From positions 108,140-172,139 of the forward strand of contig JBGQGB010000002.1 of the NCBI GenBank assembly GCA_041497195.1: a stretch of DNA of 64,000 nt, written 5' to 3'. Of this stretch, positions 41,240-61,787 are shown in pieces; within the stretch, counting starts at the first letter, position 1, and every line of letters begins with the position of its first letter. The translations under genes and the position numbers were made by a program. Source of the DNA: Candidatus Doudnabacteria bacterium (GTDB lineage: Bacteria > Patescibacteriota > Doudnabacteria > UBA920 > 2-01-FULL-46-14). A model generated the notes under the pieces. That model was given only the letters and a program-made list of their open reading frames with translations. It was not told the origin of the DNA and ran no database searches.

Positions 41240-41311
41240 ATGACACGATTTTCAGCAGGCTGGGATGTGGGCTTTTCGCCACTCCCAGCCTATTTTAATT
41301 TTCAAATCAAA

Positions 41312-41345: not shown

Positions 41346-41359
41346 TTGGTTCTTGGGAT

Positions 41360-42388: not shown

Positions 42389-42607
42389 CGGGCGTAGGCA
42401 GGCGGGGCAGCACCTTTCCGCCAAAGGCGGATAAACTTCAAGCGAAGGTCGTCACGAACGTTAGTCGGGACCATCGGCTTTGAAAAAAACGAAGAGAGCA
42501 AACCCCGCAGGTTCAGGCAAAAATAGGTCCTGGTGTCAAGCCCCCAATGTCTTGACACCAAGCGCTCAAACAAGAGAAAATTCAGGTGGTATGATCCTTC
42601 AAAAGCT

Positions 42608-42635
42608 TTGCAAATAAGGCTTTTTTTGTTATAAT
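42608..42635 (+). promoter_or_regulatory. Promoter TTGCAA-16-TATAAT for the atp operon
   Basis: TTGCAA at 42608-42613, TATAAT at 42630-42635. Confidence 0.45.
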
Positions 42636-42649
42636 TAGCCTCAAGAACC

Positions 42650-42892
42650 ATGGAAGACATTCAAAAAGACGGGAAACAAAAAACAGGCCTAAATAAATCA
42701 GCTCTGGTCTCGATTGCTTTTGAGCTCGGGTTCATTATCGCGCTTCCAGTCCTGGTATTTGGGTTTTTGGGCAAGTGGCTGGACCAAAAAGCCGGCACCT
42801 ACCCGATCTTGACCCTGGTGGGGATTCTCGGAGCAATCACTATGACGAGCATTTGGATCTACCGAAAGTTTAGAGTTTATGTACAAAAATAA
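42650..42892 (+). CDS. AtpZ/AtpI-like small membrane protein at the head of the atp operon
   Basis: Two TM helices with G..G.WLD pattern (LGFIIALPVLVFGFLGKWLDQKAGTYP). Confidence 0.5.
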   Translation: MEDIQKDGKQKTGLNKSALVSIAFELGFIIALPVLVFGFLGKWLDQKAGTYPILTLVGILGAITMTSIWIYRKFRVYVQK

Positions 42893-43693
42893 ATGTTGAC
42901 TATTCCGCCCTTGGCGGCTGAGACAATTTTCAAAATCGGTTCGTTTCCGATTACCAATACCTACATCAATTCCACGATTGTGCTGGTGCTGTTTTTGATT
43001 TTGGGTTTGCTGATGCGAAAAAAGTCAGCCGAGATTCCGGGCAAGCTGCAAAATTTTATGGAAAGTATCTTCGAAGTTTGCTTGAAATATGTGGACCAGG
43101 TCACACACGATCGCAAGAAGTCTCTCCGTTTTCTCCCACTCGTCGGTTCGCTGTTTTTCTTTATCCTGCTTTCCAACTGGTTTGGCATCCTCCCAGGCGT
43201 GGGCTCCATTGGCCGGTATATCACTGAAGCGGGCCATACGGAATTTGTGCCCTTGTTTCGCCCTGCCAACACTGACCTTAATACGACACTTGCGATGGCC
43301 GCCCTGGGCGTGGTCGCGAGCCATATCTTCGGTATCATCGCCATCGGTTTTTGGAAATATGCCAACAAGTTCATCAAGCTTGGAGACATCTGGACAAGCT
43401 TTCGCCACGGCGGGGTCAGTATTTTTGTATCCTTCGTCGAGTTTGGCGTCGGGATTATCGAGATTTTTTCGGAAATCGCCAAAGTCGTATCCCTGTCGTT
43501 GCGGTTGTTCGGCAATGTTTTTGCGGGCGAGGTCCTGCTGTCGGTATTGGCGAGTCTGATTGCCTTGGTGGTGCCATTGCCGTTTATAGCACTTGAGGTT
43601 TTGATTGGGTTTATCCAAGCCCTGGTGTTTTCGATGCTGGTCTTGGTCTACCTGACAGTGGCGACCATGGAAGTGGAAGAAGCTCATCATTAG
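42893..43693 (+). CDS. atpB: F0F1 ATP synthase subunit a
   Basis: Conserved …SLSLRLFGNVFAGEVLL… Arg-containing helix. Confidence 0.9.
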   Translation: MLTIPPLAAETIFKIGSFPITNTYINSTIVLVLFLILGLLMRKKSAEIPGKLQNFMESIFEVCLKYVDQVTHDRKKSLRFLPLVGSLFFFILLSNWFGILPGVGSIGRYITEAGHTEFVPLFRPANTDLNTTLAMAALGVVASHIFGIIAIGFWKYANKFIKLGDIWTSFRHGGVSIFVSFVEFGVGIIEIFSEIAKVVSLSLRLFGNVFAGEVLLSVLASLIALVVPLPFIALEVLIGFIQALVFSMLVLVYLTVATMEVEEAHH

Positions 43694-43782
43694 TTTGATA
43701 ATTAATTATTTTAATTCTCAACCGACGCAATAAACCAAAAACCATAAAACCGTCGAGTATGAGAAAAAGAAAGGAATAAAAA

Positions 43783-44004
43783 ATGCTAGATGCACAAACG
43801 ACTGCGACTATCGTCAAAGGCATGACTATTGCCATTGGCGGAATAGCACCGGCCATCGCCATCGGCAAAACCGCCAGCAAGGCCATGGAGTCCATCGGCC
43901 GCAACCCGGAATCAGCGGACAAGATTTTTGTCCCGATGTTGCTGGGTATGGCCTTCGCGGAAGCTATCGCCATTTACGCCCTGGTCATTACGTTCATTCT
44001 CTAA
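43783..44004 (+). CDS. atpE: F0F1 ATP synthase subunit c
   Basis: Hairpin proteolipid with GRNPE loop and a carboxylate in helix 2 (…GMAFAEAIAIYALV). Confidence 0.9.
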   Translation: MLDAQTTATIVKGMTIAIGGIAPAIAIGKTASKAMESIGRNPESADKIFVPMLLGMAFAEAIAIYALVITFIL

Positions 44005-44007
44005 ACG

Positions 44008-44562
44008 ATGATTTTACACCACCTCATTGTTTTTGCCGCCGCGGAAACGGCTCAGACCGGAAGCCAGCCCAGTTTCTTGGCGACTCTCGGGATCAACTGG
44101 AAATTGTTTCTGGCCCAGCTGGTGAATTTTGCAATCGTGATTTTTGTCCTGTGGCGCTGGGTGATGAAACCAGTCGTCGGTGCTTTGGAAGCGCGGCGGC
44201 AAAAAATTGAGGATTCGGTGCGGCAAGCCCAAGAAATAGAAACAAGGATGAAAGCGTTTGAAACCGAACGCGACCAGAAGTTTCAGCTAGCGCGCGTAGA
44301 AGCGGAAGCAATCCTGAAAAAAGCGACCGCGTCGGCTGACAGCGCTCGCCAGGAAATAACTTTGCAGGCGCGCGCGGAAGCAGAACGTATTTTGGCCGCT
44401 GCCAAGGCGGCGATTGAGGCAGACAAGCAGCAGATGTTGTCGGAGATCCGCGAGGAGGTGGCGAGTTTTACGGTCATGGCGACTGAGAAAATTTTACGAG
44501 AAAAATTGGGCAGTCAAAAGGATAAAGAATTGATTCAGGAGGTTTTCAAATCGCTGAAATGA
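44008..44562 (+). CDS. atpF: F0F1 ATP synthase subunit b
   Basis: Single TM then a long charged coiled coil. True start may be downstream (TTG near 44075). Confidence 0.8.
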   Translation: MILHHLIVFAAAETAQTGSQPSFLATLGINWKLFLAQLVNFAIVIFVLWRWVMKPVVGALEARRQKIEDSVRQAQEIETRMKAFETERDQKFQLARVEAEAILKKATASADSARQEITLQARAEAERILAAAKAAIEADKQQMLSEIREEVASFTVMATEKILREKLGSQKDKELIQEVFKSLK

Positions 44563-44957
44563 AATACACTACCTCACAATACGCAATGGCGCTGCATCAG
44601 GCTATAGCGGAAACAAAACCCATTGACCAGGAGAAAGTTTTGGACAATTTCGTCTCAGTTTTGAAAAAAAACGGCGATCTCGCCAAGATTGATGAGATTG
44701 AGAGAGAATTTTTTAAATACGAGCGTGAAGCCAAAGGTATCAAGCTGGCGGAAGTGACCACCGCGAAGCGGCTTTCCGGCAGCGATGAGGAGAAACTTAT
44801 AAAAGATTTAAACGAGTATGTAAGCGGGCAGGTGGAACTGAAGACAAAGGTGGATGAAGGTCTGGTTGGTGGCATTGTCATCCGCCTCGGGGATGAGATG
44901 ATTGACGGCTCAGTCAGAAAGAGCCTGCGCGAGTTAAAAAACGAGCTTATTAAATAA
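44559..44957 (+). CDS. atpH: F0F1 ATP synthase subunit delta (short form)
   Basis: C-terminal LVGGIVIRLGDEMIDGSVRKSL is the OSCP/delta signature. 132 aa versus about 180 typical. Confidence 0.75.
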   Translation: MKYTTSQYAMALHQAIAETKPIDQEKVLDNFVSVLKKNGDLAKIDEIEREFFKYEREAKGIKLAEVTTAKRLSGSDEEKLIKDLNEYVSGQVELKTKVDEGLVGGIVIRLGDEMIDGSVRKSLRELKNELIK

Positions 44958-44984
44958 TTTTTTTTGGAAGAAAGATCTATACAG

Positions 44985-46493
44985 ATGAAAGCAGACAAAA
45001 TCATTGAAGATCTGAAAAGCCGCATTGCGGGATTTGCGCCGTCCGTTAAAGTGGAGAAGGTTGGTGAGATCCTCGACATGGGTGACGGCGTGGCGCGAGT
45101 CTCCGGCCTCACTCAGATCACAGCGCAGGAGATGGTTGAAATCGAAACCGCAGAAGGCAGGGTTTTGGGTGTAGCTTTCAACCTGCAGGACACACAGGTT
45201 GGGGTCGTCGTCTTTGGCAATCAGGAACACATTAAAGAAGGAAATTTGGTTCACGCTACGGGCCGGATTTTGTCCGTGCCTGTGGGCGAGGGGATTGTCG
45301 GACGGGTGGTGAATGCTTTGGGCGAGCCTGTGGACGGCAAAGGGGCGATCAAATCCTCCAAATTTTACCCGGTGGAAAAAATTGCGCCTGGGGTCATCAC
45401 CCGGGAGTCCGTGCGCCAGCCTGTCCAGACCGGCATAAAAGCGATTGACGCGATGATCCCGATCGGCCGCGGTCAGCGGGAACTGATCATTGGCGATCGG
45501 CAAACTGGCAAAACTGCCATAGCCATCGATGCAATCATCAATCAAAAAGGTCAGAATATGATTTGCATTTATGTGGCCATCGGGCAAAAAGAGTCGAAGA
45601 TCGCCAAGATCGTCAAAGAACTCGAAAAGCGCGGGGCCATGGAATACACGAGCGTGGTTTTGGCCGGCGCCGCGGAGCCGGCGGCCATGTCTTACATAGC
45701 GCCATATGCCGGGTGCGCCATGGGGGAATACTTTATGGATCAGGGCAAAGACGTTTTGGTGATTTACGACGATTTGTCCAAGCACGCAGTAGCTTATCGC
45801 GAGATTTCCTTGCTCTTGCGGCGGCCGCCGGGACGCGAAGCTTATCCAGGGGACGTTTTTTATCTCCATTCCAGGCTTCTGGAACGCGCGGCCAAATTGA
45901 ACAAGGATTTTGGCGGCGGTAGTCTCACGGCTTTGCCCATCATTGAGACCCAGGCCGGGGACAATTCGGCGTATATCCCGACCAATGTCATTTCTATCAC
46001 AGACGGGCAAATATATCTGGAAACCGATTTGTTTTACCAGGGCATCCGGCCAGCGCTCAACGTTGGTCTATCAGTATCGCGTGTCGGTTCGTCCGCGCAA
46101 ATCAAGGCGATGAAAAAGGTCGCCGGCAAACTGCGTCTCGACCTCGCCCAATATCGCTCGATGGAAGCGTTTGCTCAGTTTGCCTCGGATCTCGACGAAG
46201 CGACCAGACATCAGATCGAGCGCGGCCGTCGCGTCACCGAAGTCCTCAAGCAGCCCCAGTATATGCCCGTCCCTGTCGAAAATCAGGTTGCCATCATTTA
46301 TGCTGTGACCAACGGATATCTCGACGATGTGCCAGTGGAAAAAATTAGCGAATTCGAAATGCGTTTTCAGGAATATCTCAAGGCCAATGGCCGCGATTTG
46401 CTCAATCATATTCGGGTGAAAAAAGAGTTGGAAGGGGAGATGGAAGAAAAGCTCAAGCGCCTCGTCGAAGAATTCAAAAAACTTTTTAGATAA
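44985..46493 (+). CDS. atpA: F0F1 ATP synthase subunit alpha
   Basis: Walker A GDRQTGKT and alpha-specific blocks. Confidence 0.9.
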
Positions 46494-46497
46494 ATCT

Positions 46498-47403
46498 ATG
46501 CCCGCCACGAAAGATATCCGCCGCAGAATCAAGTCAATCAAATCCACCCGCCAGATTACCAAGGCCATGGAGCTTGTTTCAGCTGCCAAAATGAGAAAGG
46601 CCCAAGCGCAGGCTCTGGGCACCAGAACTTACGCGCAACTCTCACAGGAATTACTCCGAAAGCTGTCCAGCAAAATTCACCCGCAAGCCCACGCGCTCTT
46701 GCGCCGCCCGAAAGAAAGCAATACAGTCGCTGTGATAGTCATCGCGTCGAATCGCGGTCTCATCGGCGGTTTCAACAACAATGTCATCAATAATGCGCTC
46801 AATTACACCAAACAAGCGAACGCCAAAAAGTTTGAGTTCATTCCTTTGGGAAAAAAAGCTCAAAACGCTTTGTTAAAGAAAGGCCAAACTATCGCTGCGC
46901 AGTTTGAGAAAAAGGATTCAGGAATTTCCGAGATAGATGTCTTGCCTTTGGTCAAGCTAGTTACTGATGATTTTGTGGCTGGCAAGTATGATAGAGTCGT
47001 TTTGGTATATATGGATTTTGTCAGCACTTTAGTGCAGCGTCCTGTTATTCGCGAGTTGTTGCCCCTCTCCGACCAAGTTGTCGCTGCCACCGTTGCTTCA
47101 GGTCAGGATTGGGAGGATGAGGAAGGCGACTACATAAACAATACGGATTATCTTTTTGAGCCTGACCCTGATCAAGTTTTGGAAAATTTGTTGCCGAGGT
47201 TGGTGGAAATCCAGATTTATCAGGCTCTTCTGGAAACAAATGCCGCCGAGCACTCGGCTCGGATGGTAACGATGAAAAACGCTACGGATGCTGCCGGTGA
47301 TCTTGTGGATGAATTGATTTTTGAATACAACCAACTGCGGCAAGCTGCCATTACCAAAGAGATTAGCGAAATTGTTTCCGGGCAGCTGGTCCTAAGCAAA
47401 TAA
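46498..47403 (+). CDS. atpG: F0F1 ATP synthase subunit gamma
   Basis: N-terminal IKSTRQITKAMELVSAAKMRKAQ and a C-terminal helix. Confidence 0.9.
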   Translation: MPATKDIRRRIKSIKSTRQITKAMELVSAAKMRKAQAQALGTRTYAQLSQELLRKLSSKIHPQAHALLRRPKESNTVAVIVIASNRGLIGGFNNNVINNALNYTKQANAKKFEFIPLGKKAQNALLKKGQTIAAQFEKKDSGISEIDVLPLVKLVTDDFVAGKYDRVVLVYMDFVSTLVQRPVIRELLPLSDQVVAATVASGQDWEDEEGDYINNTDYLFEPDPDQVLENLLPRLVEIQIYQALLETNAAEHSARMVTMKNATDAAGDLVDELIFEYNQLRQAAITKEISEIVSGQLVLSK

Positions 47404-47440
47404 TTTAGGCAGCTGATAAAGAAAGTCTCAGATTTATTGA

Positions 47441-48874
<1,434 letters not shown>

Positions 48875-48913
48875 ATTTTTCGTCCCAGGCATTTTTTTCC
48901 AAGGCACAAACCA

Positions 48914-49348
48914 ATGGCAAAGCTAAACTTTAGGATAGCCACGCCCGAGCGCGTGGTCTACGAATCCGAGGTCGAACAGGTCACCTGCATGACGCAAATG
49001 GGCGAAGTGACGATTTTGCCAAACCATATCCCTTTGGTCGCGACCCTCGTGCCAGGAGAGCTGAAAGTTATCGAAACAGGAAGTCAGAAGTACATGTCGG
49101 TGGCCGGCGGTTTTTTGGAGGTGCGGCCAAACAACGAAGTCGTCATTTTGGCTGATGCCGCAGAGCATGCCGAGGAAATCGACCTGGCCCGTGCCGAAGA
49201 AGCCAGAAAACGGGCCAAAGAGCTCATGAAAGAGCCGGCCCAGGGCGGCGGGACCATAGCCGAGGCGCAGGCCCTGCTGGAGCGTTCTCTTGCGAGAATT
49301 AAGGTGGGAAAGCGGAGGAAATACAAAGATGTCGGGCGACGTCCTTAA
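48914..49348 (+). CDS. atpC: F0F1 ATP synthase subunit epsilon
   Basis: N-terminal beta-sandwich (ATPERVVYESEV…) plus a helical C-terminus. Confidence 0.85.
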   Translation: MAKLNFRIATPERVVYESEVEQVTCMTQMGEVTILPNHIPLVATLVPGELKVIETGSQKYMSVAGGFLEVRPNNEVVILADAAEHAEEIDLARAEEARKRAKELMKEPAQGGGTIAEAQALLERSLARIKVGKRRKYKDVGRRP

Positions 49349-50717
49349 ATACAACTGGCCGGACAAAAGTCTTTTGTCCACGTCAGCTTTTGGAATTATT
49401 GAGACTTTACGCAGGAAAGGTTATGAAGCTTTTGTGGCCGGCGGAGCAGTCCGGGATTTGCTTTTGAAACGGCCGATTCGCGAAATCGACATTGCCACGT
49501 CGGCGAAGCCCCAGGACGTGGAGAAAATTTTTCCCAAAACCATTCCAACCGGCAAAAAGCACGGCACTGTCACGGTGCGGCAAAAGGGTTTCAATTTCGA
49601 AGTCACGACTTTTCGCGTGGAAGGCCCTTACGAAAAAGCGCGCCGACCAACCAAGGTCAAATTCATCCGGTCCGCGGAAGAAGACGCCAAGAGGCGGGAC
49701 TTCACGATCAACGCCATGTTTTATGACGCGGACAAAAAGCTGGTCCTAGACTATGTCCGTGGCATTGCCGATTTGGCGCACCGTCGCATCAATTTGGTCG
49801 GCGATCCGGAAAAGCGGATCAAAGAAGATGCGCTGCGCATGCTGCGTGCCGTCAGATTTGCCGCTACTTTACGTTTTGATTTGTCCAGAGAGACGCGGCG
49901 AGCCATTCAGGTCAATGCCAAGTTGATCACCAAGATATCGGGAGAGCGTGTGAAACAAGAACTCGACCGAATCATTGTGTCCGACAGAGCGTCAATCGGT
50001 TTCGGTTTGCTCGATGTGGTCGGACTACTTCCCCATATTTTACCTGAGTTGGATAATCTGCAAGGAATAACGCAGCCGAAAAATCAGCACTCAGAAGGGG
50101 ATGTTTACGCTCATAGTCTCCTGGCTCTGGAAAATACTGACGAGACATATGATGAGGCGACGCGTTATGCGGTTTTGTTTCATGACTTGGGCAAGCCTTT
50201 GACCAAAGAGGTCAGCGCAGGCAAAACGACTTTTTACGATCATCAGGCGGTGGGGGCTGAGATTGCCCAAAAAATCTGTTCCCGGCTCAAATTCAGCAGT
50301 GCGGACACTGCGAAAATTGCGTGGTTGGTCAAAAACCACATGGTCCCTCACGATTTTGCGCAGATGAAACTTTCGACTAGGAGAAAGTGGGGCCTCAATC
50401 CTTATTTTTCCGATCTTTTAAGAGTCTATACAGCTGACGCCCGGGCTGCAATTCCAGCCTCAGGCCGCGTAAACAAAAATCCCCAGGGCTTGAAAGAGGG
50501 TTTGCAAATTTTGCAAGAGGTGAAAAACACGCCTGCCCTGAGAAAACCCCTCCTCTCGGGTAAGGATGTGATGAAAGTTTTGCAAATTGAGCCAGGACCG
50601 AGGGTTGGAAAAGTTCTGGCGTTTCTGGAGGAAAAGAAATTGGCCGGTGAGCTTGCCACGGCGGCCGCTGCTCTCACGTTTTTGAAAAAAAACAAAAAGT
50701 TTCTCAAGAACCTCTGA
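49329..50717 (+). CDS. cca: CCA-adding enzyme / tRNA nucleotidyltransferase with HD domain
   Basis: GGAVRD…EIDIAT head-domain motifs, RRDFTINA, HD domain (HD…FHDLGK). Confidence 0.8.
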   Translation: MSGDVLKYNWPDKSLLSTSAFGIIETLRRKGYEAFVAGGAVRDLLLKRPIREIDIATSAKPQDVEKIFPKTIPTGKKHGTVTVRQKGFNFEVTTFRVEGPYEKARRPTKVKFIRSAEEDAKRRDFTINAMFYDADKKLVLDYVRGIADLAHRRINLVGDPEKRIKEDALRMLRAVRFAATLRFDLSRETRRAIQVNAKLITKISGERVKQELDRIIVSDRASIGFGLLDVVGLLPHILPELDNLQGITQPKNQHSEGDVYAHSLLALENTDETYDEATRYAVLFHDLGKPLTKEVSAGKTTFYDHQAVGAEIAQKICSRLKFSSADTAKIAWLVKNHMVPHDFAQMKLSTRRKWGLNPYFSDLLRVYTADARAAIPASGRVNKNPQGLKEGLQILQEVKNTPALRKPLLSGKDVMKVLQIEPGPRVGKVLAFLEEKKLAGELATAAAALTFLKKNKKFLKNL

Positions 50718-50739
50718 GGGCCTGGTTGCCAATAAAAGA

Positions 50740-50768
50740 CCGGCCACTTGATTTTTTCGGAGTACTCT
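50740..50768 (+). promoter_or_regulatory. Promoter TTGATT-17-TAGAAT; a second extended -10 TGCTAGAAT lies at 50830-50837
   Basis: Two promoter-like elements upstream of tRNA-fMet. The tRNA 5' end is 11 nt after the second -10. Confidence 0.45.
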
Positions 50769-50848
50769 GATAGAATCTATTACACGACGCCGGGCAGAGT
50801 CGGCCATGGCCGAGCAGCTCGCAACGTGTGCTAGAATGGAAAATACAT

Positions 50849-50923
50849 CGCGGGGTAGAGCAATGGCAGCTCGCAAGGCTCATAACCTTGAGGTTGGCGG
50901 TTCGAGTCCGCCCCCCGCAACCA
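50849..50923 (+). tRNA. Initiator tRNA-Met (CAT), CCA encoded
   Basis: Hand-folded. C1·A72 mismatch at the top of the acceptor stem (initiator hallmark), anticodon loop CTCATAA, T-loop TTCGAGT. Confidence 0.75.
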
Positions 50924-50939
50924 AATATAATTCAAAAAA

Positions 50940-51881
50940 ATGAGTGACAGTTTTGTCCCGCCGAATAAGCACAGTCAGCGCAATCGGGGGATTGTTTTTT
51001 TTCTCGGGATCGGCTTGGTCCTGTCCCTGCTAGTTTCCTTTATCTGGGTCGAGCCTTTGAGCGGCGCAGATCAGACTTTCTACGTGAAATACCGCCATGA
51101 AGCCTCGCCGCCCCTGATACCGAAGCTTTTCCCGCAAACTGCGGCGAGTAACTTTTCCGCTACGAGGACCCCGGTGCTGATGTACCACTACATTCGTACA
51201 GTCGTCAATCCTGGCGGTGATCCGCTTGGGTTTAGCCTATCCGTGACGCCGCAGGATTTTGAAACGCAAATTTCGTATTTGCAGCAAAATGGTTATAACA
51301 GTATTACTCCCGACCAGCTTTTCCAAGCGCTCGCGGGGAAAGCCCTATTGCCGGCAAGGGCGGTGCTTTTGACTTTTGATGACGGCTATGAGGATTTCTA
51401 TACCACGGCCTTTCCGATTTTGAAAAAATACAACTTCAAGGCCACTGTATTTGTGGTCCCCGGTTTTGTCGGAGAGCCTGATGGGCGGTACCTGACGTGG
51501 CAGCAGGTCAAAGAGCTTGATGCGTCAGGGCTCATCACTGTAGGCGCTCACACTATGCATCACGTCAATCTCGTGACCCATCCTGACGCTCCAGCGGAGA
51601 TTTCGCAAAGCAAGGAGGTCCTGGAAAGTTTTCTAAAAAAGTCCGTTACTGCGTTTGCCTACCCGGGAGGGACGTATGATGAGCACGTGATAAATCTAGT
51701 GGCTGAGTCTGGGTATGATCTCGCTTTTACTACCAGATTCGGCATTTGGCACGATCTTTCGCAACGTTTGGCCCTCAGCCGTGTGCGTATAAGCGGCGGC
51801 CTTACAATGGAAAAATTCGTGGAGAGATTGAACGGGCAACTCAATATCCTAACGAAAGCCCAAACAGTCGCAATTCCTTGA
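50940..51881 (+). CDS. Polysaccharide deacetylase (CE4 / NodB homology domain), membrane-anchored
   Basis: N-terminal TM. TFDDGY Asp-Asp motif and HTMHH metal-binding His motif. Confidence 0.8.
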   Translation: MSDSFVPPNKHSQRNRGIVFFLGIGLVLSLLVSFIWVEPLSGADQTFYVKYRHEASPPLIPKLFPQTAASNFSATRTPVLMYHYIRTVVNPGGDPLGFSLSVTPQDFETQISYLQQNGYNSITPDQLFQALAGKALLPARAVLLTFDDGYEDFYTTAFPILKKYNFKATVFVVPGFVGEPDGRYLTWQQVKELDASGLITVGAHTMHHVNLVTHPDAPAEISQSKEVLESFLKKSVTAFAYPGGTYDEHVINLVAESGYDLAFTTRFGIWHDLSQRLALSRVRISGGLTMEKFVERLNGQLNILTKAQTVAIP

Positions 51882-51918
51882 AGTTTTTGCACTCATACTT
51901 TAAACTTATGAAGAGTCT

Positions 51919-51996
51919 GCCAGGGTAGCTCAGTTTGGTTAGAGCGAAGGACTCATAAGCCTTAGGTCGTGGGTTCGACTCCCACCCCTGGCACCA
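51919..51996 (+). tRNA. tRNA-Met elongator (or tRNA-Ile2) with CAT anticodon, CCA encoded
   Basis: Fully paired acceptor GCCAGGG/CCCTGGC, anticodon loop CTCATAA. Confidence 0.7.
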
Positions 51997-52139
51997 CGCG
52001 TGAATCTGAGTTTCGATTTTCGTAAACCGTGAAAACGGTTTTCTGCAATCTTCACTCTATTCCCGCTTTCCCCAAAAATCCGTGCTCGTCCGCGCTAGGC
52101 GGGCTGCGCTCCTGGTTTTTGGGGGGCCTCAAAATTGAT

Positions 52140-52218
52140 GCTCGCTTGGTGTAGCCTGGTCTAACACGTCTCCCTGTCACGGAGAAGATCACGGGTTCAA
52201 ATCCCGTAGCGAGCGCCA
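52140..52218 (+). tRNA. tRNA-Asp (GTC), CCA encoded
   Basis: Acceptor GCTCGCT/AGCGAGC, anticodon loop CTGTCAC. Confidence 0.8.
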
Positions 52219-52271
52219 TTTCAATACGGTTTTGAAGCAGCACTTCCTTTTTGCCAAAGCTTTTTGTCAGG

Positions 52272-52300
52272 TTGCCATTATCATTTTTCATTGCTAGACT
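52272..52300 (+). promoter_or_regulatory. Promoter TTGCCA-17-TAGACT for pyrD
   Basis: TTGCCA at 52272-52277, TAGACT at 52295-52300. RBS GAGGAGGGG before ATG 52365. Confidence 0.45.
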
Positions 52301-52364
52301 GTAGTGTTGAAGCTACGGTTTTATTGTTTGTCTGGATTGTCCGAAAAAAACTTGAGGAGGGGAT

Positions 52365-53510
52365 ATGACCTTAATAGAGCGGTACTACAAAACCCGTATC
52401 CGACCAGGGGTCTTCGCTGCGAGCGAACCCGACGCGGAATTAGCACACGAGTGGGGCATGAACAAACTCGTGAGAATTCAGAATAGTCGCTTTCTGACTG
52501 CGCTCGCCAGGCTTTTCTGCGTTTACTGCCACCCCATGCTCGAGACTGAAGTGATGGGTCTGCAGTTCCCAAATCCCTTTGGCCTCGCCGCGGGTTTTGA
52601 CAAGTATTGCGAGGTCTATTCACGCGCTATTCCCGCGTGCGGCTGGGGTTTTTGTGAAATAGGCGGAATCACCGCGTTCCAGCAGTCAGGCAATCTTCTC
52701 CGCCCACGCATGAAGCGGTCACACGCGCATCAAGCCTTGTGGAATTTCATGGGATTCAACAACCCGGGCGCTCCCATAGCCGCAGCTACAATGTCTAGGC
52801 ATCCTAAAGCGGTAGTGCCAGTGGGACTCAATGTGGGCAAGAGTAAAGCGACCCCGTTGGATGAGGCGGCCAGAGACTACTGCCACACTGTCACCGTGCT
52901 TTATCAACATGTCGATTTCGTCACAGTGAATCCCAGTTCACCTAATACGCCTGGACTGCGTGACCTCCAAAAAAAGACAGAGCTTTCAGACTTGCTTCGG
53001 GCAGTCAAAAAGACCATGGAAGCAATCGCGGATTGCAATGGCTTGCCCAGACTGCCGCTTGGCGTGAAACTGTCTCCTGATCTTTCGGATGAGGCTTTGG
53101 CTGATTGTATCGAGGTGTGCAAAGAAGTTGGCGCTGCTTTTATAACGTTAACCAATACCACGGTCGGGCGAGCCGGGCTCAATGGTTGGGATATTCCAGC
53201 GGATCGAGGCGGCGTCAGTGGGAAACCTTTGCGTGAAGCCTCGGAACGGATCCTGGCGCAAGTTTACCTCGCCCTTAATGGCCACCGGCCGAAGATAAAT
53301 CTCATCAGTGTCGGCGGTATTTCAAACGCCCAAGAGCTCTACCGGCGGATCAGGCTCGGGGCCGACCTCTGCCAGGCTTACACTGCGTGGCCTTTCGAGG
53401 GACCTGATTTTGCCAGGCGGTGTCTCAAAGAGCTGGTCAGAATGCTCAAGTCCGACGGCTTCCGGCATGTTTCCGAAGCAGTCGGATCTGAGACCTGTAT
53501 GTGTTCATGA
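52365..53510 (+). CDS. pyrD: Dihydroorotate dehydrogenase (class 2-like, with N-terminal extension)
   Basis: GLQFPNPFGLAAGFDK…VTVNPSSPNTPGLR…GGISNAQELYR blocks. Confidence 0.85.
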   Translation: MTLIERYYKTRIRPGVFAASEPDAELAHEWGMNKLVRIQNSRFLTALARLFCVYCHPMLETEVMGLQFPNPFGLAAGFDKYCEVYSRAIPACGWGFCEIGGITAFQQSGNLLRPRMKRSHAHQALWNFMGFNNPGAPIAAATMSRHPKAVVPVGLNVGKSKATPLDEAARDYCHTVTVLYQHVDFVTVNPSSPNTPGLRDLQKKTELSDLLRAVKKTMEAIADCNGLPRLPLGVKLSPDLSDEALADCIEVCKEVGAAFITLTNTTVGRAGLNGWDIPADRGGVSGKPLREASERILAQVYLALNGHRPKINLISVGGISNAQELYRRIRLGADLCQAYTAWPFEGPDFARRCLKELVRMLKSDGFRHVSEAVGSETCMCS

Positions 53511-53527
53511 GTCTGGTTTTCCTAGTT

Positions 53528-53568
53528 GGTGGTGCTGTGCTCCGGCGCGGCACCACCTTATTTTTTTG
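53528..53568 (+). terminator. Rho-independent terminator after pyrD
   Basis: GGTGGTGC…GCACCACC 8-bp stem then TTATTTTTTTG. Confidence 0.65.
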
Positions 53569-53570
53569 TC

Positions 53571-53599
53571 TTGCAGACGATCCAAACTTTTGCTAGTCT
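53571..53599 (+). promoter_or_regulatory. Promoter TTGCAG-17-TAGTCT for pyrF
   Basis: Sequence match with 17-nt spacing. Confidence 0.4.
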
Positions 53600-53661
53600 T
53601 TAGGGTCGAGGTTAATCTCACTGACCTCGTAGTTACTCGAAATCATCAAGGGGGAAAATAT

Positions 53662-54405
53662 ATGAATCCGAAACGTCTGCCGATTTATTTGGCTTTGGAT
53701 GGCATGGAGATCAGTCAGTGCCTCCAGTTGTGCGGGAAAATCGGTGACAGAATCACCGGGGTCAAAGCAAATTCCCTCTGGCGGAAACAGGGAGCGAGCA
53801 TTGCATCGCTTCTGATGCACGCCGGAGCCAATGAAGTGTTCGCTGATCTCAAGCTGCACGATATTCCCAATACCGTAGCGAATGATACCAAAGACGTAGC
53901 TGAAGCTGGGGCTGGAGTCTTGACTGTGCACGCAAGTGGCGGCTTGGAAATGATGCAGGCCGCGGTGAAGGCGTCCCCTGGACTTCGAATCCTAGCAGTC
54001 ACTGTGCTGACTTCCCTGGATGCCTTGGCAGTTGGCAAAATATACGCTGGCCCACTGTTTGGGGTGGCTCTGCGTTTGGCGCGGCTCGCACTGACAGCCG
54101 GCGTTTGGGGTTTGGTCTGCTCTCCCGAAGACCTGTTGTTCTTGCGTATGTCCTCGCATTTTGATCCGGACGGGCTCCAGTTCGTCACTCCCGGAGTGCG
54201 CCTCCCTCAAGGAAATACTCATGACCAGAAACGAGTGCGGACGCCTTTCGAAGCAATTCGTGACGGCGCTGATTATCTCGTTGCCGGTCGTGAAGTCACG
54301 ACGAGCTCGCAGCCTCTCGAAGTCCTCAAGAGATATGAGGAGGAAATCGAGCGAGGATTGGAGGAAAGGGCCCTTGCAGAAAGAATAATCTCCGGAACGA
54401 CCTGA
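53662..54405 (+). CDS. pyrF: Orotidine 5'-phosphate decarboxylase
   Basis: RBS AAGGGGG. YLALDGME…KLHDIPNTV…LTVHASGG…VTPGVR motifs. The 365-aa track ORF starting at 53308 is an upstream out-of-context extension. Confidence 0.85.
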   Translation: MNPKRLPIYLALDGMEISQCLQLCGKIGDRITGVKANSLWRKQGASIASLLMHAGANEVFADLKLHDIPNTVANDTKDVAEAGAGVLTVHASGGLEMMQAAVKASPGLRILAVTVLTSLDALAVGKIYAGPLFGVALRLARLALTAGVWGLVCSPEDLLFLRMSSHFDPDGLQFVTPGVRLPQGNTHDQKRVRTPFEAIRDGADYLVAGREVTTSSQPLEVLKRYEEEIERGLEERALAERIISGTT

Positions 54406-54489
54406 ATGCGGCCTTGTAGAGGACCGGGAAGCCGAATTTCTAGGCTAGACTAACCGCCCAGGGTTTCAATTCTGAAGAGGAGAGCGCTA

Positions 54490-55140
54490 ATGCAAAGCCA
54501 GTCTGAGTTCGATGAGAAGAGAATATCGTGTGCGCGAGCGTGGTTCAGGGCAGGTATTTTCCTGGACAAGACCAAATCACCGGGAGGGCAGGGCTTTAGG
54601 CTCAAACTGCATGAGAAGACGCCTGACGCGCCTCTATCTCCTTTTTATCTCAACTTCCGGCTCCTTCGTTCGTTCCCAACTCTCTTGCAAGAAACCGCGG
54701 AGCTGATGGAGGATATGGTGGTGGGCGATGATTTTGACCTCGTCGCCGATATCCCGACTGCGGCGACTCCACTCGTGACGCTCATCTCCCAGGACTTGCA
54801 GATTCCGATGATTACTCCTCGGGAAATGAAGACGCACTGGTCAGGTGCGGTCATTGACGGAGTCTACAAGAAAGGGCAGAAAGTGGTTGTCTTTGACGAC
54901 CTCATCACGAAGGCAGACAGCAAGATTGCGAGTGCGAAACAGCTCACCGCAGAAGGACTGCTCGTCGGGCGGTTCGTGGTTTTGGTTGATCGAGAGCAAG
55001 GAGGTCTCGCTCAGCTCAAAGCAGCCGGATACAGCTGTGAACCGGCTTGGTTCCTGCAAGACCTTCTCGGACTGTACCGGCACGAGGGGTTACTAAGCCC
55101 AGAGGTTCATGTAGAGATTGTGACTTACCTCGAAGCCTGA
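54490..55140 (+). CDS. pyrE: Orotate phosphoribosyltransferase-like (type I PRTase)
   Basis: PRPP-binding motif VVVFDDLITKADSKI, and genomic context with pyrD/pyrF. Confidence 0.65.
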   Translation: MQSQSEFDEKRISCARAWFRAGIFLDKTKSPGGQGFRLKLHEKTPDAPLSPFYLNFRLLRSFPTLLQETAELMEDMVVGDDFDLVADIPTAATPLVTLISQDLQIPMITPREMKTHWSGAVIDGVYKKGQKVVVFDDLITKADSKIASAKQLTAEGLLVGRFVVLVDREQGGLAQLKAAGYSCEPAWFLQDLLGLYRHEGLLSPEVHVEIVTYLEA

Positions 55141-55260
55141 AGGCGGACCTTTCGGATTTGTGGGGCGGCGGCACCTAGTGCTCGTCGCCCTTATTTATTT
55201 TCGAAGTCCTTCGGTAGGCCTGCTGTGGGCGGGCGAAAGAGGATGTGGTATGCTTAGAAT

Positions 55261-56247
55261 ATGAACTTTCAGGTCCTCACAATCGTATTGGTAGTAGCCG
55301 GCTTCGCGTTGGTGGTTTATTTTTTGTCGCGCCGGCCCAAAACAGATCCCGGCATGCAGGTGATGCTTGAATGGCTCAAGGAGATGCGCGGTTCTTCGGA
55401 GGTGATGCAGAAACGACTGGATGAGACCAACAAAACCATCAGTGACCGGCTCGACAATGCCGCCCGTTTCATCGGCGACCTGAAAAAAGAGCTCGGCGGC
55501 ATGTCGCAAATCGGCCCTGATATCCGCAGGCTTTCCGAAGTCTTGGCCAGCCCGAAAGCGAGAGGGAATTTCGGGGAAGAAATGCTGGAGGAACTTCTCC
55601 GCCAAGTTTTGCCCAAAACAGCATATGAATTTCAGTACAAATTTAGAAGCGGAGAAGTTGTGGACGCGATGGTCCGAGTCGGAGACCATATCTTACCCAT
55701 CGACAGCAAGTTTAGTCTGGAAAATTTTCGACTTTATAAAGAAGCGAAGACAGAGGATGCAGCAGCTGGTTTGAAAAAGGCTCTTTTGAAAGATATCAAG
55801 AAACGCGTAGACGAGATCCAGAAGAAGTATATTTTGCCGCAGGAAGGAACTTTTGATTTCGCTCTGATGTATGTGCCCAGCGAGGGTTTGTATTCTGAAG
55901 TATCAGAAGACCCCCAGATCGTTTCCTACGCGCGGGAAAAAAGAGTTTTTCTCGTCAGTCCGCAGAATCTCTATCTGCACTTGCAGGTGATTTTGCTCGG
56001 CCTCAAACGCGAACAGATCAGCGAAAAGGCCGGACAAATTTTAGCCATGATTACGGGGATTAAACAGGAGAGCGAAAAATTCGGCAGAAATTTGGAGATT
56101 TTGGCCAGTCATGTCAAAAACTCAGGAAATACTATGGGTGTTGTGCTTGGCGACTTTGCCAAGCTCAAGACAGCAATAGGCAATGCGGCAAATTTGGAAT
56201 TACAAAACCCTCCGGAAGGTCGAACCGGAGACAAACTTTTGGAATAA
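55261..56247 (+). CDS. rmuC: DNA recombination protein RmuC
   Basis: N-terminal TM, coiled coil, and RmuC nuclease-like core (ARGNFGEEMLEELL…FDFALMYVPSEGLY). Confidence 0.8.
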   Translation: MNFQVLTIVLVVAGFALVVYFLSRRPKTDPGMQVMLEWLKEMRGSSEVMQKRLDETNKTISDRLDNAARFIGDLKKELGGMSQIGPDIRRLSEVLASPKARGNFGEEMLEELLRQVLPKTAYEFQYKFRSGEVVDAMVRVGDHILPIDSKFSLENFRLYKEAKTEDAAAGLKKALLKDIKKRVDEIQKKYILPQEGTFDFALMYVPSEGLYSEVSEDPQIVSYAREKRVFLVSPQNLYLHLQVILLGLKREQISEKAGQILAMITGIKQESEKFGRNLEILASHVKNSGNTMGVVLGDFAKLKTAIGNAANLELQNPPEGRTGDKLLE

Positions 56248-56271
56248 ATTAAAAAAATAACGAAAAAAATT

Positions 56272-56808
56272 ATGGCACTAAATGATGTATTTGACGTTTT
56301 TGCAAAACATGAAGAGCAGCGCGTAGGAGTTTTTGTTGACGTACAAAATTTGTATTACTCTGCCCGGAATATTTACAATTCGAGGGTGAATTTTTCCGCG
56401 CTGCTCAAAGAAGCCGTGGGAAAAAGAAAGCTCATCCGAGCTATCGCCTATGTGATCCGCGCACAAATGCCGGAAGAGCATACTTTTTTTGAAGCACTGT
56501 CCAAGGCCGGCTACGAGGTCAAAGCCAAAGATTTGCAGGTCTTCTTCGGCGGTATGAAAAAAGGAGACTGGGACGTGGGTATCACCATGGATGTCATCCG
56601 GGTCATCAATAAGCTCGATACGGTAGTGCTGGCTTCGGGGGACGGGGATTATCTCGCTCTGGTCGAGTATTTGCAGAACTTTGGCATCAGGGTGGAAGTG
56701 ATTGCTTTTGGGAAGAGCTCGTCCAATAAATTGGTCGATGCAGTCGACGATTTTGTGGATATGGATCATGCGCCCAAAAAATTCCTGATCCCGATGAAGA
56801 ACAAATAG
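56272..56808 (+). CDS. NYN-domain (LabA-like) protein
   Basis: VGVFVDVQNLYYSAR…DVGITMDVI…LASGDGDYLALVEYLQNFGIRVEVI match PF01936 blocks. Confidence 0.75.
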   Translation: MALNDVFDVFAKHEEQRVGVFVDVQNLYYSARNIYNSRVNFSALLKEAVGKRKLIRAIAYVIRAQMPEEHTFFEALSKAGYEVKAKDLQVFFGGMKKGDWDVGITMDVIRVINKLDTVVLASGDGDYLALVEYLQNFGIRVEVIAFGKSSSNKLVDAVDDFVDMDHAPKKFLIPMKNK

Positions 56809-56811
56809 CCA

Positions 56812-57528
56812 ATGTCCGCTCCGAGACCGATAGCTATATTCGATATAGACGGCACGATTTTTCGCTCCAGCCTCAACATTCAGCTTTTTGAGCGGCTGGT
56901 GCGCGAAGGGATATTTCAGTCTGCGGTTTTGCGTCGAGTGCGGAAATCCGAGGAAAAATGGCTCAACCGCCAGGGCCACTATGACGACTACGTCCACGAA
57001 CTGGTGCGCGCTTATCAAAAAGCGATTGTGGGCAAAGACCGCAGGGATATTGTGCGAGTGAGCAAACGGGTCGTGGCTGAGCAAAAATATCGCACTTATC
57101 GCTACACCCGACATCTTCTCGAAAAAGTGCGACGCAAGTATTTTACGATTTGCATCTCTAGCTCGCCTCTGGAAGTCGTGCAGGAGTACAATAAGTTTCT
57201 CAAATTCGACAAAATTTACGGCTGGGAACTAGGCGTAAATGAACGTGGTCGCTACACTGGCGTGACCCTGCATTTGCCCGCACTTTATAAAAAGGAATTG
57301 ATTGTCCGCTATGTCCAGGGCCACCACTTGAGTCTCAAAGGTTCGCTCGGAGTGGGGGATACCGAAACGGACATTGGGTTTCTCGAGCTGGTCGAGGAGC
57401 CGATCGCGTTCAATCCCAATGTGATTTTAGCAAGGTATGCTCGCCAGCATGACTGGAGAATTGTGATCGAGCGAAAAGATTTGATTGTCGAGCTGGATCC
57501 AAGAAAAGTGAAGTTTCTCAAAGTGTAA
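56812..57528 (+). CDS. HAD-superfamily hydrolase, subfamily IB-like
   Basis: Motif I IAIFDIDGTI and motif IV GVGDTETDIGFL. Confidence 0.7.
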   Translation: MSAPRPIAIFDIDGTIFRSSLNIQLFERLVREGIFQSAVLRRVRKSEEKWLNRQGHYDDYVHELVRAYQKAIVGKDRRDIVRVSKRVVAEQKYRTYRYTRHLLEKVRRKYFTICISSSPLEVVQEYNKFLKFDKIYGWELGVNERGRYTGVTLHLPALYKKELIVRYVQGHHLSLKGSLGVGDTETDIGFLELVEEPIAFNPNVILARYARQHDWRIVIERKDLIVELDPRKVKFLKV

Positions 57529-57531
57529 CGA

Positions 57532-57608
57532 GCGCCCGTAGCTCAGTGGATTAGAGCGTCTCCCTCCGGAGGAGAAGGCCAGAGGTCCGAATCCTCTCGG
57601 GCGCACCA
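57532..57608 (+). tRNA. tRNA-Arg (CCG), CCA encoded
   Basis: Acceptor GCGCCCG/CGGGCGC, anticodon loop CTCCGGA. Confidence 0.8.
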
Positions 57609-57613
57609 AAATA

Positions 57614-58021
57614 ATGAGGCGAGTAATGGTGTTTGGCACATTTGATATTTTGCATCCTGGTCATATTTATTTTCTCAAGGAAGCGAAAAAATATGGCGAT
57701 TTTTTGATCGTGTCCATTGCGCGTGACGCCAATGTGGAACGCGTCAAAGGTCACGCAGCGCGCCACACTGAAACGGATCGCAAGAAGCTTCTCGAATCGC
57801 TTCGCTTCGTCAACAAGGTCGTTTTAGGCGCCCCAAGAGATTATATTGAGCATATCTTAAAAATGCGACCGCGGGTGATCGCTTTAGGGTATGATCAAAA
57901 AGCTTATACGCACAAACTATCGGAGAAATTGGCGGCTCGTGGGATGAGCGTTAGCGTCGTGCGTATGAAGCCGTACAAGCCGAACATTTACAAATCTAAA
58001 AAGTTAATCATTAAAAAATAA
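57614..58021 (+). CDS. ribL: Archaeal-type FAD synthetase (RibL-like nucleotidyltransferase)
   Basis: VMVFGTFDILHPGHIYFLKEAKKYGDFLIVSIARD… matches the RibL HxGH motif and layout, distinct from the TagD STDEFN pattern. Adjacent to riboflavin kinase. Confidence 0.6.
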   Translation: MRRVMVFGTFDILHPGHIYFLKEAKKYGDFLIVSIARDANVERVKGHAARHTETDRKKLLESLRFVNKVVLGAPRDYIEHILKMRPRVIALGYDQKAYTHKLSEKLAARGMSVSVVRMKPYKPNIYKSKKLIIKK

Positions 58022-58322: not shown

Positions 58323-58649
58323 ATGGCGAAACAATACAAAATAGTAGTTTTTGTGCCTACAGCTCACGCTGACGCAATTCGCGAGGTTTTGGGCAAAGCC
58401 GGAGCCGGGAGCTCGGGCAATTACGAGTTCGCATCCTTTTCTGCGACAGGCCTGGGGAGGTTTCGCCCGCTCAAGGGCGCCAAACCAGTCATTGGAGAAG
58501 TCGGCAAGCTCGAAGCAGTGGAAGAAGAACGGATCGAGACAGTAGTTCGCGTAGAAGACCTCGCTGACGTAGTGTACAAAGTTCGGCAAGCGCATCCTTA
58601 TGAAGAGCCGGTTATAGATGTATATGAACTCACAAATAGCGATGATTAG
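58323..58649 (+). CDS. Small ferredoxin-like/PII-like protein (NIF3-insert-like, COG3323-type)
   Basis: KIVVFVPTAHADAIREVLGKAGAG…HPYEEPVIDVYEL pattern recalled from stand-alone PII/Nif3-insert-like proteins. Low-confidence family call. Confidence 0.35.
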   Translation: MAKQYKIVVFVPTAHADAIREVLGKAGAGSSGNYEFASFSATGLGRFRPLKGAKPVIGEVGKLEAVEEERIETVVRVEDLADVVYKVRQAHPYEEPVIDVYELTNSDD

Positions 58650-59010
58650 CGAGAAATTTTCTGGAACAGCTCAAAAGCATTTAGGACGAGGGACAAAACT
58701 TGGTTTTCCGACTGCTAATATGGACGTTCCTTCTCAAGCCCAGGAGGGGACCTTTTTAGGTTGGACTACTCTGGGAGGCAAAAAATGGCCTTCCCTAATT
58801 TTTATCGGGGCTCCTGAAACCTTTGGGGAAACGGACAAGCGAGCGGAAACTTATATTCTGGACTTCCGTGGCAGTTTGTACGGCAAGAGTATAGAGATAG
58901 AATTGATAGAGAAGTTGCGAGATAATAAAAAATTTGGTTCAGAGGCCGAGCTGGTGGAACAGATGAAAGCTGACGAACAGAAAGCTCGCATTTTTTTTGC
59001 AAGAAAGTAA
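58618..59010 (+). CDS. ribK: Monofunctional riboflavin kinase (flavokinase)
   Basis: GRGTKLGFPTANM…IFIGAPETFG…ETYILDF…LYGKSIEIEL match the RibF C-terminal flavokinase domain. Start may be ATG 58643. Confidence 0.65.
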   Translation: MYMNSQIAMISEKFSGTAQKHLGRGTKLGFPTANMDVPSQAQEGTFLGWTTLGGKKWPSLIFIGAPETFGETDKRAETYILDFRGSLYGKSIEIELIEKLRDNKKFGSEAELVEQMKADEQKARIFFARK

Positions 59011-59027: not shown

Positions 59028-59175
59028 GCTCAGCTTTCAGGGCGGGGCGCAAGTCCCCACCGGTGGTAAACCTCAAGCCAAGTCGAGAGGTAGTCCACGA
59101 GCCCCGAGCGTAGTCGAGGGGCACGATGCCGTTTGATTCGGCAACCGACGGTCATAGTCCGGATGAAAGAGAGCT
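59028..59175 (+). promoter_or_regulatory. FMN riboswitch (RFN element) aptamer
   Basis: CAGGGCGGGGCGCAAGTCCCCACCGGTGGTAAA … GCAACCGACGGTCATAGTCCGGATGAAAGAGAG matches RFN conserved blocks (GGG-loop-CCC-ACCGG[CU]GGUA…; CCGACGGU.AUAGUCCGGAUGAAAGA). P1 is formed by CTTTC / GAAAG. Confidence 0.8.
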
Positions 59176-59185
59176 TGATTTTGAG

Positions 59186-59216
59186 TGTGCCCTGATAAGC
59201 AGGGTTTTTATTTTTA
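59186..59216 (+). terminator. Riboswitch expression-platform terminator (FMN-dependent attenuation)
   Basis: CCCTG-ATAAG-CAGGG hairpin immediately followed by TTTTTATTTTT, 12 nt before the ATG of the transporter. Confidence 0.6.
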
Positions 59217-59227
59217 AGCCAAAATTT

Positions 59228-60163
59228 ATGAATCGGTACAAAACAGGTCCGTGGCTGGTAGTCGTAGCTGCCTTGATGTGGGCGCTTGACGCGCCTTTTC
59301 GTAAATACCTGACTCTTGATTTGTCTTCAACCACGATCGTTCTGATGGAGCACCTGACCATCGCGGTTTTGGTATTTGTGTTTTTGTTCAGATATTTGTC
59401 AGAATTTCGCAAACTCGGCTGGCGCGAGTGGTTGGCCGTCGTCTTTATCGGTTTTGGTGGGTCAGCTCTGGCTACAGTTCTTTTCACGCAAAGCTTCCAT
59501 TATGTCAATCCGTCCGTGTCCATACTGCTACAAAAAGTCCAGCCAATTATTACGATACTTCTGGCAGCAGCTCTACTGAAAGAAAAGTTGACCAAAAATT
59601 TTTGGAGCTGGGCGATTGTGGGTATTTTTGGAGCTTATCTTATAACTTTCCCGGAACTTCGTATTTCGGGTCTCGAGTTTGGCGGAGGCACTTTGGGAGT
59701 CGTCTTCGCGCTTCTAGCTGCCTTTCTGTGGGGTGGCTCGACAGTATTTGGCCGGTTTGTGCTGCGCAAATTAAGCTTTCAGGCAATGACCGCAGCGCGG
59801 TTCCTGAGCGCGCTGGTTTTTCTTTTTGTTTTGGAAATTTATTACGGCCGTTTGGGCGAGTTGCGGACAGCCACTCCCAAAGACTGGTTGTATGTCCTCA
59901 TCATCGCCATACTGGCGGGTTTTGTTTCCTTGTTCATTTACTATCGCGGCTTGCAGTTTACCAAAGCTAGTATTGCGACCATTGGCGAGCTGGCCTTTCC
60001 TTTTGCAGCCGTCATTGTGAATTGGATCTTTTTGGGTGCGACTTTGACCTTAGCACAAATTTTGGGCGGGTTAATTCTGCTGTTTTCGATGGTGAAGCTG
60101 TCGTTGGAGAACGCAAAAGAGGGTGATATACTGGAACAGCAGAATGTTCACCAAAACGTTTAA
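59228..60163 (+). CDS. DMT/EamA-family transporter, ImpX/RibN-like putative riboflavin importer
   Basis: Ten-TM EamA-type duplication. Directly controlled by the FMN riboswitch. Confidence 0.65.
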   Translation: MNRYKTGPWLVVVAALMWALDAPFRKYLTLDLSSTTIVLMEHLTIAVLVFVFLFRYLSEFRKLGWREWLAVVFIGFGGSALATVLFTQSFHYVNPSVSILLQKVQPIITILLAAALLKEKLTKNFWSWAIVGIFGAYLITFPELRISGLEFGGGTLGVVFALLAAFLWGGSTVFGRFVLRKLSFQAMTAARFLSALVFLFVLEIYYGRLGELRTATPKDWLYVLIIAILAGFVSLFIYYRGLQFTKASIATIGELAFPFAAVIVNWIFLGATLTLAQILGGLILLFSMVKLSLENAKEGDILEQQNVHQNV

Positions 60164-61334: not shown

Positions 61335-61787
61335 ATGAAAGTTGTTATTGATACCAACATTTTGATAAGCGGGGCTGATGATGAATCGTCTTATGCGCGT
61401 AGGATTATTGAGGAAGTGATTGCCGGGCGCATCCAGGCCTACGCCACTCATCAGACGGAAGGAGAGAATCGCCAGATGCTGCGGAAGTTGGTAAAAGACA
61501 GAGACTACCGCGCTCGTCTCGAGCAATATTTCGGCAAGATAAATATAGTAAAGGCCTATCAGCCCCTGCAGGTTGTTTCTGATGCAGAAGATAATAAGTT
61601 GTTTGAATCAGCAGTCGCAGCCGGGGCAGACTATTTGATTTCTCATGACCAGGAAGTTTTGGCTATCTCAGAGTACAAAAAAACCAAAGTTGTGCAGCCG
61701 GAAGAATTTTGGTTCAGGTACCAGAATGAGAGAGGTGACGACTCAGCTTGGCAGGATTGGAGCAAGATGATTATGAGCAACAACTAG
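61335..61787 (+). CDS. PIN-domain protein (putative toxin-type nuclease, PIN_3-like)
   Basis: MKVVIDTNILISG (Asp in strand 1) and a distal …GADYLISHDQ acidic motif. Confidence 0.6.
   Translation: MKVVIDTNILISGADDESSYARRIIEEVIAGRIQAYATHQTEGENRQMLRKLVKDRDYRARLEQYFGKINIVKAYQPLQVVSDAEDNKLFESAVAAGADYLISHDQEVLAISEYKKTKVVQPEEFWFRYQNERGDDSAWQDWSKMIMSNN

Follow-up and report, generated by a model that had tools for sequence, protein, structure and literature searches.

The locus studied here raises the question of what controls the gene for an unnamed membrane transporter in an uncultured, ultra-small bacterium of the CPR/Patescibacteria type, and what that control says about the compound transported. 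The initial annotation had read the sequence in front of the gene as an FMN riboswitch, and we have analysed this element within the whole 64-kb stretch of DNA from which it comes (called the window below) together with relatives of the downstream protein. In our estimate, there is a probability of roughly 85% that it is a canonical FMN riboswitch, an OFF switch that works by transcription attenuation before a candidate riboflavin-uptake gene, where FMN binding and termination are deduced from sequence and predicted structure.

The whole window was searched on both strands with cmscan against 4227 Rfam families, and the only match other than tRNAs is to RF00050, the FMN riboswitch aptamer or RFN element, at positions 59029-59178 of the + strand. 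Its score of 94.9 bits (gathering score 66.2; E 1.3e-20) is far beyond chance, and the alignment spans model positions 1-138 of 138 and is not truncated, so the original identification is confirmed at full length. The two conserved RFN blocks that had been recognised by eye, GGGGCGCAAGTCCCCACCGGTGGTAAA and CCGACGGTCATAGTCCGGATGAAAGAGAG, lie at 59044-59070 and 59145-59173, respectively. The junction blocks AGGGC, ACCGG, CGAG, GAU, CCGAC and GGAUGAAAGA all agree with the upper-case consensus of the model.

The six-stem architecture expected of this aptamer is attainable, as the covariance-model alignment places all of P1-P6 with a single non-standard pair, which is at the outer end of P1. Stem P2 is formed by 59045-47/59055-57; P3 by 59063-66/59095-98, with a CCUC/GAGG extension at 59071-74/59087-90; P4 by 59101-03/59120-22, which can be extended to 5 bp; P5 by 59127-31/59139-43; and P6 by 59149-51/59159-61, all on the + strand, with the conserved J6/1 junction GAUGAAA following at 59162-68. 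RNAfold recovers P1, P3, P4 and P5 when given the isolated aptamer. An alignment of 10 loci, the window and nine relatives, contains compensatory changes in P1, P3, P5 and P6 (the columns of P2 and P4 are disrupted by insertions), and one position of P1 reads A-U, G-C, U-A and C-G among the aligned relatives.

The register of P1 is the sole point on which the initial annotation has to be corrected. The covariance model, RNAfold and the 10-locus alignment (covariation of columns 4-10 with 224-230) agree that AGCUUUC at 59032-59038 pairs with GAGAGCU at 59169-59175 on the + strand. P1 had been described as closed by CTTTC and GAAAG, and both strings are present (59034-38 and 59165-69), but their pairing is not borne out. 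Compared with the covariance-model register it loses 3 kcal/mol of stability, it would use nucleotides of the conserved J6/1 junction, and it is impossible in the relatives, which read CCTTC...GAAAGAAGG (also given as CCTTC...GGATGAAAGAAGG).

Immediately behind the aptamer, at 59189-59215 of the + strand, pattern scanning and folding agree on an intrinsic-terminator-like element composed of a hairpin and a T-run. The stem (G)CCCUG/CAGGG(U) occupies 59189-94/59200-05 around the loop AUAAG, and is followed by UUUUUAUUUUU at 59205-15. In the pattern scan the hairpin (59189-59205) has 6 pairs, 4 of them G-C, and a loop of 5; its stem is short (5-6 bp) and its energy is about -8.9 kcal/mol. The terminator proposed originally is found where it was described, with CCCTGATAAGCAGGG at 59190-59204 and TTTTTATTTTT at 59205-59215, though the end assigned to it, 59216, lies one base beyond the element.

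Folding with and without a P1 constraint identified the antiterminator, which pairs 59033-59043 with 59189-59200 of the same strand. The 5′ partner, GCUUUCAGGGC, is made up of the P1 5′ strand and the conserved J1/2 sequence CAGGGC, and the 3′ partner, GCCCUGAUAAGC, of the terminator's left arm and loop. Folded without constraint, 59029-59235 adopts a minimum-energy structure (-69.9 kcal/mol) with the antiterminator and no terminator hairpin; when P1 is enforced on the same segment the fold (-65.4 kcal/mol) consists of the aptamer and the terminator hairpin, which appears only under that enforcement. The energy of the antiterminator duplex is -21.1 kcal/mol vs -9.1 ± 2.4 kcal/mol in shuffled sequences, none of which was as good (0/300). 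For a transcript that ends at 59200, folding favours the antiterminator over the P1 state by about 10 kcal/mol, and in the full-length transcript, once the right arm has been made, the gap shrinks to about 2-3 kcal/mol, which is small enough for ligand binding to decide. The hairpin with its U-tract and the alternative pairing of the P1 strand are thus mutually exclusive, and these predicted folds agree with the FMN-dependent attenuation that had been suggested for the locus.

These folds also bear on whether the aptamer could belong to the variant FMN-like riboswitches, which would here sense riboflavin, lumichrome or another flavin product and turn ON an efflux transporter, like subtypes 1 and 2 of Clostridium difficile. 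EamA/DMT proteins such as the one encoded downstream are often exporters, and the NCBIfam near-matches of this one are YedA and YddG, far below their cut-offs. The variants too have an FMN-like fold and are typically found upstream of transporter genes (PMC6298564), as is the element in the window. However, in the known variants the conserved guanosines that touch the ribityl and phosphate groups are exchanged for adenosines; these variants reject FMN, and those of subtype 2 act as ON switches (PMC6298564). In the window aptamer, the junction nucleotides of the FMN pocket (FMN-contacting nucleotides as in the published structure summarised in PMC6298564) retain the consensus without any G-to-A replacement, the score exceeds the gathering score by a wide margin, and the platform has OFF rather than ON logic because formation of P1 releases the terminator. 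The neighbouring genes (below), which encode a riboflavin kinase and probably an FAD synthetase, fit uptake and use of a flavin, not its disposal. The retained guanosines and the OFF logic rule against assignment to subtype 1 or 2, and we consider a variant of this kind very improbable. Judged by its sequence, the aptamer is instead an unremarkable example of RF00050, its expression platform follows the textbook, and it would be expected to bind FMN.

Collections of genomes and metagenomes supplied relatives of the downstream protein (30 and 24 loci, respectively). An FMN aptamer that reaches the gathering score lies 5′ of the orthologous gene in loci L001, L002, L005, L009, L010, L015, L032, L043 and L044, where L015 is identical to L047 over the riboswitch region; the aptamer of L041 has 54.2 bits and falls under the gathering score because of large insertions. 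This makes 11 distinct riboswitch-bearing loci with the window included. Most orthologous transporter loci in the two collections have no FMN riboswitch, including several whose proteins are 63-69% identical, and in some of these the transporter gene begins about 30 nt after ribK; regulation by the riboswitch thus appears to be specific to some lineages. A motif scan for degenerate aptamers in the loci that have no Rfam match found none among the genome loci and one, that of L041, among the metagenome loci.

The arrangement of the expression platform is shared by the relatives that have the riboswitch. We compared the first 18 nt of each aptamer with the leader downstream, using 300 shuffles per locus, and in 10/10 distinct riboswitch-bearing loci computed the best duplex falls on the left arm of the hairpin that precedes the T-run. 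At most 6 of 300 shuffles were as good in 7 of these 10 loci, compared to 7 for L043 and 25 for L009, and the duplex of L015 is no better than those of shuffled sequences. By eye, L041 has the same layout of aptamer, hairpin and T-run. The left arm of the terminator contains [G/C]CCCUG in all 10 computed loci and in L041, and the right arms and loops vary from locus to locus; a constant left arm with a varying right arm is as expected of a strand that pairs with two partners.

A real aptamer might still exert its control mainly by means other than intrinsic termination, through blocked ribosome loading or through Rho or an RNase, and here the short leader has to be considered. The aptamer is separated by 49 nt from ATG 59228 of the transporter gene and the U-tract ends 12 nt before that codon; the terminator has a weak stem (about -9 kcal/mol), and in L032 the start codon immediately follows the T-rich tail of the terminator (GGGCATTTTATT, then ATG). 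Rho and RNase are reportedly involved in the action of a Corynebacterium FMN riboswitch. Against this, the hairpin and T-run are retained at 50-130 nt from the start codon in L001, L002, L009 and L015, which fits termination and not occlusion of the start site. In addition, there is no Shine-Dalgarno sequence before ATG 59228 (most other genes checked between 55 and 61 kb of the window also have none), so sequestration of such a sequence is not an obvious alternative and was rejected. Control mainly by any of these other routes therefore seems unlikely, and transcription attenuation remains our preferred reading.

A promoter-like site on the + strand at 58997-59025 matches 9 of 12 consensus positions, with a -35 hexamer TTGCAA (58997-59002), a 17-nt spacer, TG at 59017-18 and a -10 hexamer TATATT (59020-25). 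The scan that found it is weak, with 3 sites vs 1.9 expected in shuffled sequences; a -10-like hexamer can be seen by eye shortly 5′ of the aptamer in most of the relatives. If this site is used, the transcript probably starts near 59032, the first base of P1.

Attenuation would then proceed as follows. Transcription would begin at the promoter-like site, and the aptamer would be the first part of the RNA to fold. When FMN is scarce P1 would be left unlocked, and GCCCUGAUAAGC, on emerging from the polymerase, would capture GCUUUCAGGGC to make the long-range antiterminator; the terminator hairpin would be blocked and RNA polymerase would read on into the EamA gene. When FMN is abundant, the ligand would keep both strands of P1 (59032-38/59169-75) and the J1/2 nucleotides within the aptamer, 59189-94 would pair with 59200-05, and transcription would stop in the U-tract (59205-15). 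The P1 3′ strand would in this way be an anti-antiterminator that, when paired with the 5′ strand, withholds it from the left arm of the terminator. The riboflavin taken up by the transporter would be trapped as FMN by the adjacent single-domain riboflavin kinase, and the RibL-like nucleotidyltransferase would then convert FMN to FAD.

This scheme has close precedents. For the rib leaders of Bacillus subtilis and Lactococcus lactis, a long-range antiterminator has been proposed that is opposed by the P1 3′ strand in the role of anti-antiterminator (PMC8966005), and the B. subtilis ribD and L. lactis rib operon switches have the same aptamer family and the same predicted OFF scheme as the window. 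In contrast to these, which control a biosynthesis operon, the window switch precedes and would control a single transporter gene, its leader from aptamer to ATG is very short, and it comes from an uncultured host of the Patescibacteria type. A literature search found no paper that links FMN riboswitches with CPR/Patescibacteria, which is not proof that such a link is unreported.

We also note several features of the relatives' leaders. Large insertions, which affect P2 and P6, are present in aptamers of Patescibacteria loci and lengthen them to as much as 198 nt (L041 1794-1936; L001 2701-2868; L010 2725-2911; L044 2207-2404). They lower the Rfam scores to 68.8-69.2 bits, and in L041 to below the gathering score, so that insertion-bearing FMN riboswitches of Patescibacteria can be overlooked by standard annotation. 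In one subgroup, a perfect palindrome, CACTCACCAATTCGCGCGAATTGGTGAGTAG, with variants, is conserved between the terminator and the transporter start codon (L009 about 2955-2990; L015 about 2960-2992; L041 2001-2033); it is absent from the window, and might serve as a protein operator or form a second hairpin. A conserved element of the form TTCGAACG(N)AGTGAGAAA...GTT(T/C)GAG lies between aptamer and terminator in another subgroup (L005, L010, L043 and L044), in the first roughly 45 nt 3′ of the aptamer. This element, likewise absent from the window, may add a stem to the expression platform.

The gene behind the riboswitch occupies 59228-60163 of the + strand. An upstream in-frame ATG at 59126, 102 nt away, lies inside the aptamer, and the initial annotation had preferred ATG 59228; this choice is upheld by the homologues, whose alignments begin at residue 1 of the 59228 product and which are about 300-325 aa long for most of the matches listed. 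In the riboswitch-bearing relatives the product starts with MN.YK.GPW directly behind the leader. We thus take ATG 59228 to be the start of the gene. An identical protein was found in one public record (P0001; GCA_041493695.1, JBGPZJ010000056.1) as a 345-aa form that starts inside P4/P5 of the aptamer, and its 34 extra residues (59126-59227) cover P4-P6, the terminator and the U-tract.

The 311-aa product is a member of the EamA/DMT superfamily, with two Pfam EamA (PF00892) repeats (E 8.7e-42) in a protein of about 300 aa. NCBIfam gives only sub-threshold matches to generic DMT models, and the database names for the family are "DMT family transporter" or "hypothetical protein" only. By the names attached to its closest homologues, the protein belongs to a Patescibacteria host that is Doudnabacteria-like. 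The position of the riboswitch in the 5′ leader and the linkage to flavin genes make the protein a candidate riboflavin importer.

That linkage is seen first in the window itself. Directly upstream of the transporter gene and on the same strand lies a gene for a single-domain riboflavin kinase (58618-59010, +; Pfam Flavokinase, E 3.3e-29), which corresponds to the RibF C-terminal domain only; its NCBIfam matches are restricted to the C-terminal third of RibF models. About 1.2 kb upstream of the transporter gene is a gene for a 135-aa protein of the cytidylyltransferase fold (57614-58021, +; Pfam CTP_transf_like, E 2.6e-14), which has a weak FAD_syn match and 3glv as its best solved structure (E 3e-25). 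It is RibL-like and would be a candidate FMN adenylyltransferase. Together, the kinase and RibL-like genes look like a split replacement for the bifunctional RibF. A 108-aa protein (58323-58649, +) has no Pfam or NCBIfam match and matches only the insert domain of the NIF3 family (2gx8 residues 161-263, E 2.3e-26); it is conserved beside the riboflavin kinase gene in L001, L005, L010, L032, L043 and L044. Genes for an NYN (56272-56808) and a PIN (61335-61787) domain protein are also nearby, and six single + strand tRNA genes (at 37970, 42316, 50849, 51919, 52140 and 57532) lie within 37970-57605.

Among the relatives, a riboflavin kinase gene precedes the transporter gene in the same orientation in 22/30 genome and 16/24 metagenome loci, and a nucleotidyltransferase gene lies near the transporter gene, either upstream or directly downstream, in 13/30 and 8/24. 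In 8 distinct loci (L019, L023, L025, L027, L030, L033, L049/L054 and L051; for example L023 1548-4357 and L033 33-1182) ribH is directly upstream of the transporter gene. The order in L023, which has no FMN riboswitch, is RibK-RibE-RibH-EamA-nucleotidyltransferase, with genes that abut or overlap. Three independent kinds of context thus tie the EamA family to flavin metabolism.

The ribH linkage is also the best reason to ask whether the riboswitch might act as described on a protein that imports a riboflavin precursor or exports flavins. Exporters are common in the EamA family. Several relatives have the gene directly behind ribH, and L023 has it behind RibE and RibH as part of an incomplete biosynthesis cluster; since no biosynthesis steps other than the last two are represented locally there, the transporter might carry a precursor in the ribH-linked lineages. 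In the window, by contrast, there are only the kinase and the nucleotidyltransferase, with no ribH match within the 64 kb. FMN-OFF control has been reported for genes of riboflavin biosynthesis and uptake (PMC4418817), and the riboflavin transporter RibN (Rhizobium leguminosarum, Vibrio cholerae) is listed as an EamA-domain protein (PMC10557607), like the window protein, with which it was compared by description only. In alpha-proteobacteria, RibN also has FMN riboswitches in front of it (PMC4418817). We accordingly regard another substrate or direction of transport as less probable, though as the least improbable of the alternatives that we have weighed, and the window protein as most likely a riboflavin importer.

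There is precedent for assigning a function in this way. RibU, RibM, RibN and ImpX were recognised through FMN riboswitches that lie 5′ of transporter genes, and for ImpX of Fusobacterium nucleatum the riboswitch was the sole ground on which riboflavin transport was proposed, a proposal that complementation later bore out (PMC4418817). The F. nucleatum impX gene, which is monocistronic, and the window gene both encode membrane transporters behind an FMN riboswitch, a comparison made by description only. Reports of RibN are confined to Proteobacteria, those of ImpX to Proteobacteria, Firmicutes and Fusobacteria, and among these to species that have the riboflavin biosynthetic pathway (PMC4418817). 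The CPR family of the window, in contrast, occurs in clusters that include ribK and a RibL-like gene, an arrangement that we have not seen described for RibN.

The class of the riboswitch and its OFF mechanism are already known, and the element raises no new question about riboswitch mechanism; the modest novelty lies in the transporter family. We tentatively suggest, at somewhat less than even odds, that the EamA protein founds a Patescibacteria-specific family of riboflavin (or flavin-precursor) transporters distinct from RibN and ImpX, both of which were compared by description only. With the stand-alone kinase of bacterial type and the archaeal-RibL-like FMN adenylyltransferase that would replace the bifunctional RibF, such a transporter might form a flavin acquisition module of reduced genomes. 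Facilitator-type riboflavin transporters are reported to occur only in prototrophs (PMC6593275, PMC4418817); if the host lacks riboflavin biosynthesis, the transporter would be a counter-example to this rule.

For the organism, the riboswitch points to a function for an unnamed transporter of an uncultured, ultra-small bacterium, and it corrects the start of a gene whose public form begins inside the RNA element. For the family, which is widespread in Patescibacteria and annotated without a function, it supplies one that can be tested. The by-product, a conserved module in which the kinase and RibL-like genes accompany that of the transporter, is somewhat more interesting than the RNA itself, and it gives an outline of how flavins may be supplied in reduced genomes: by a transporter together with a RibL-like adenylyltransferase and a kinase that stands alone, to which some lineages add ribH and ribE.
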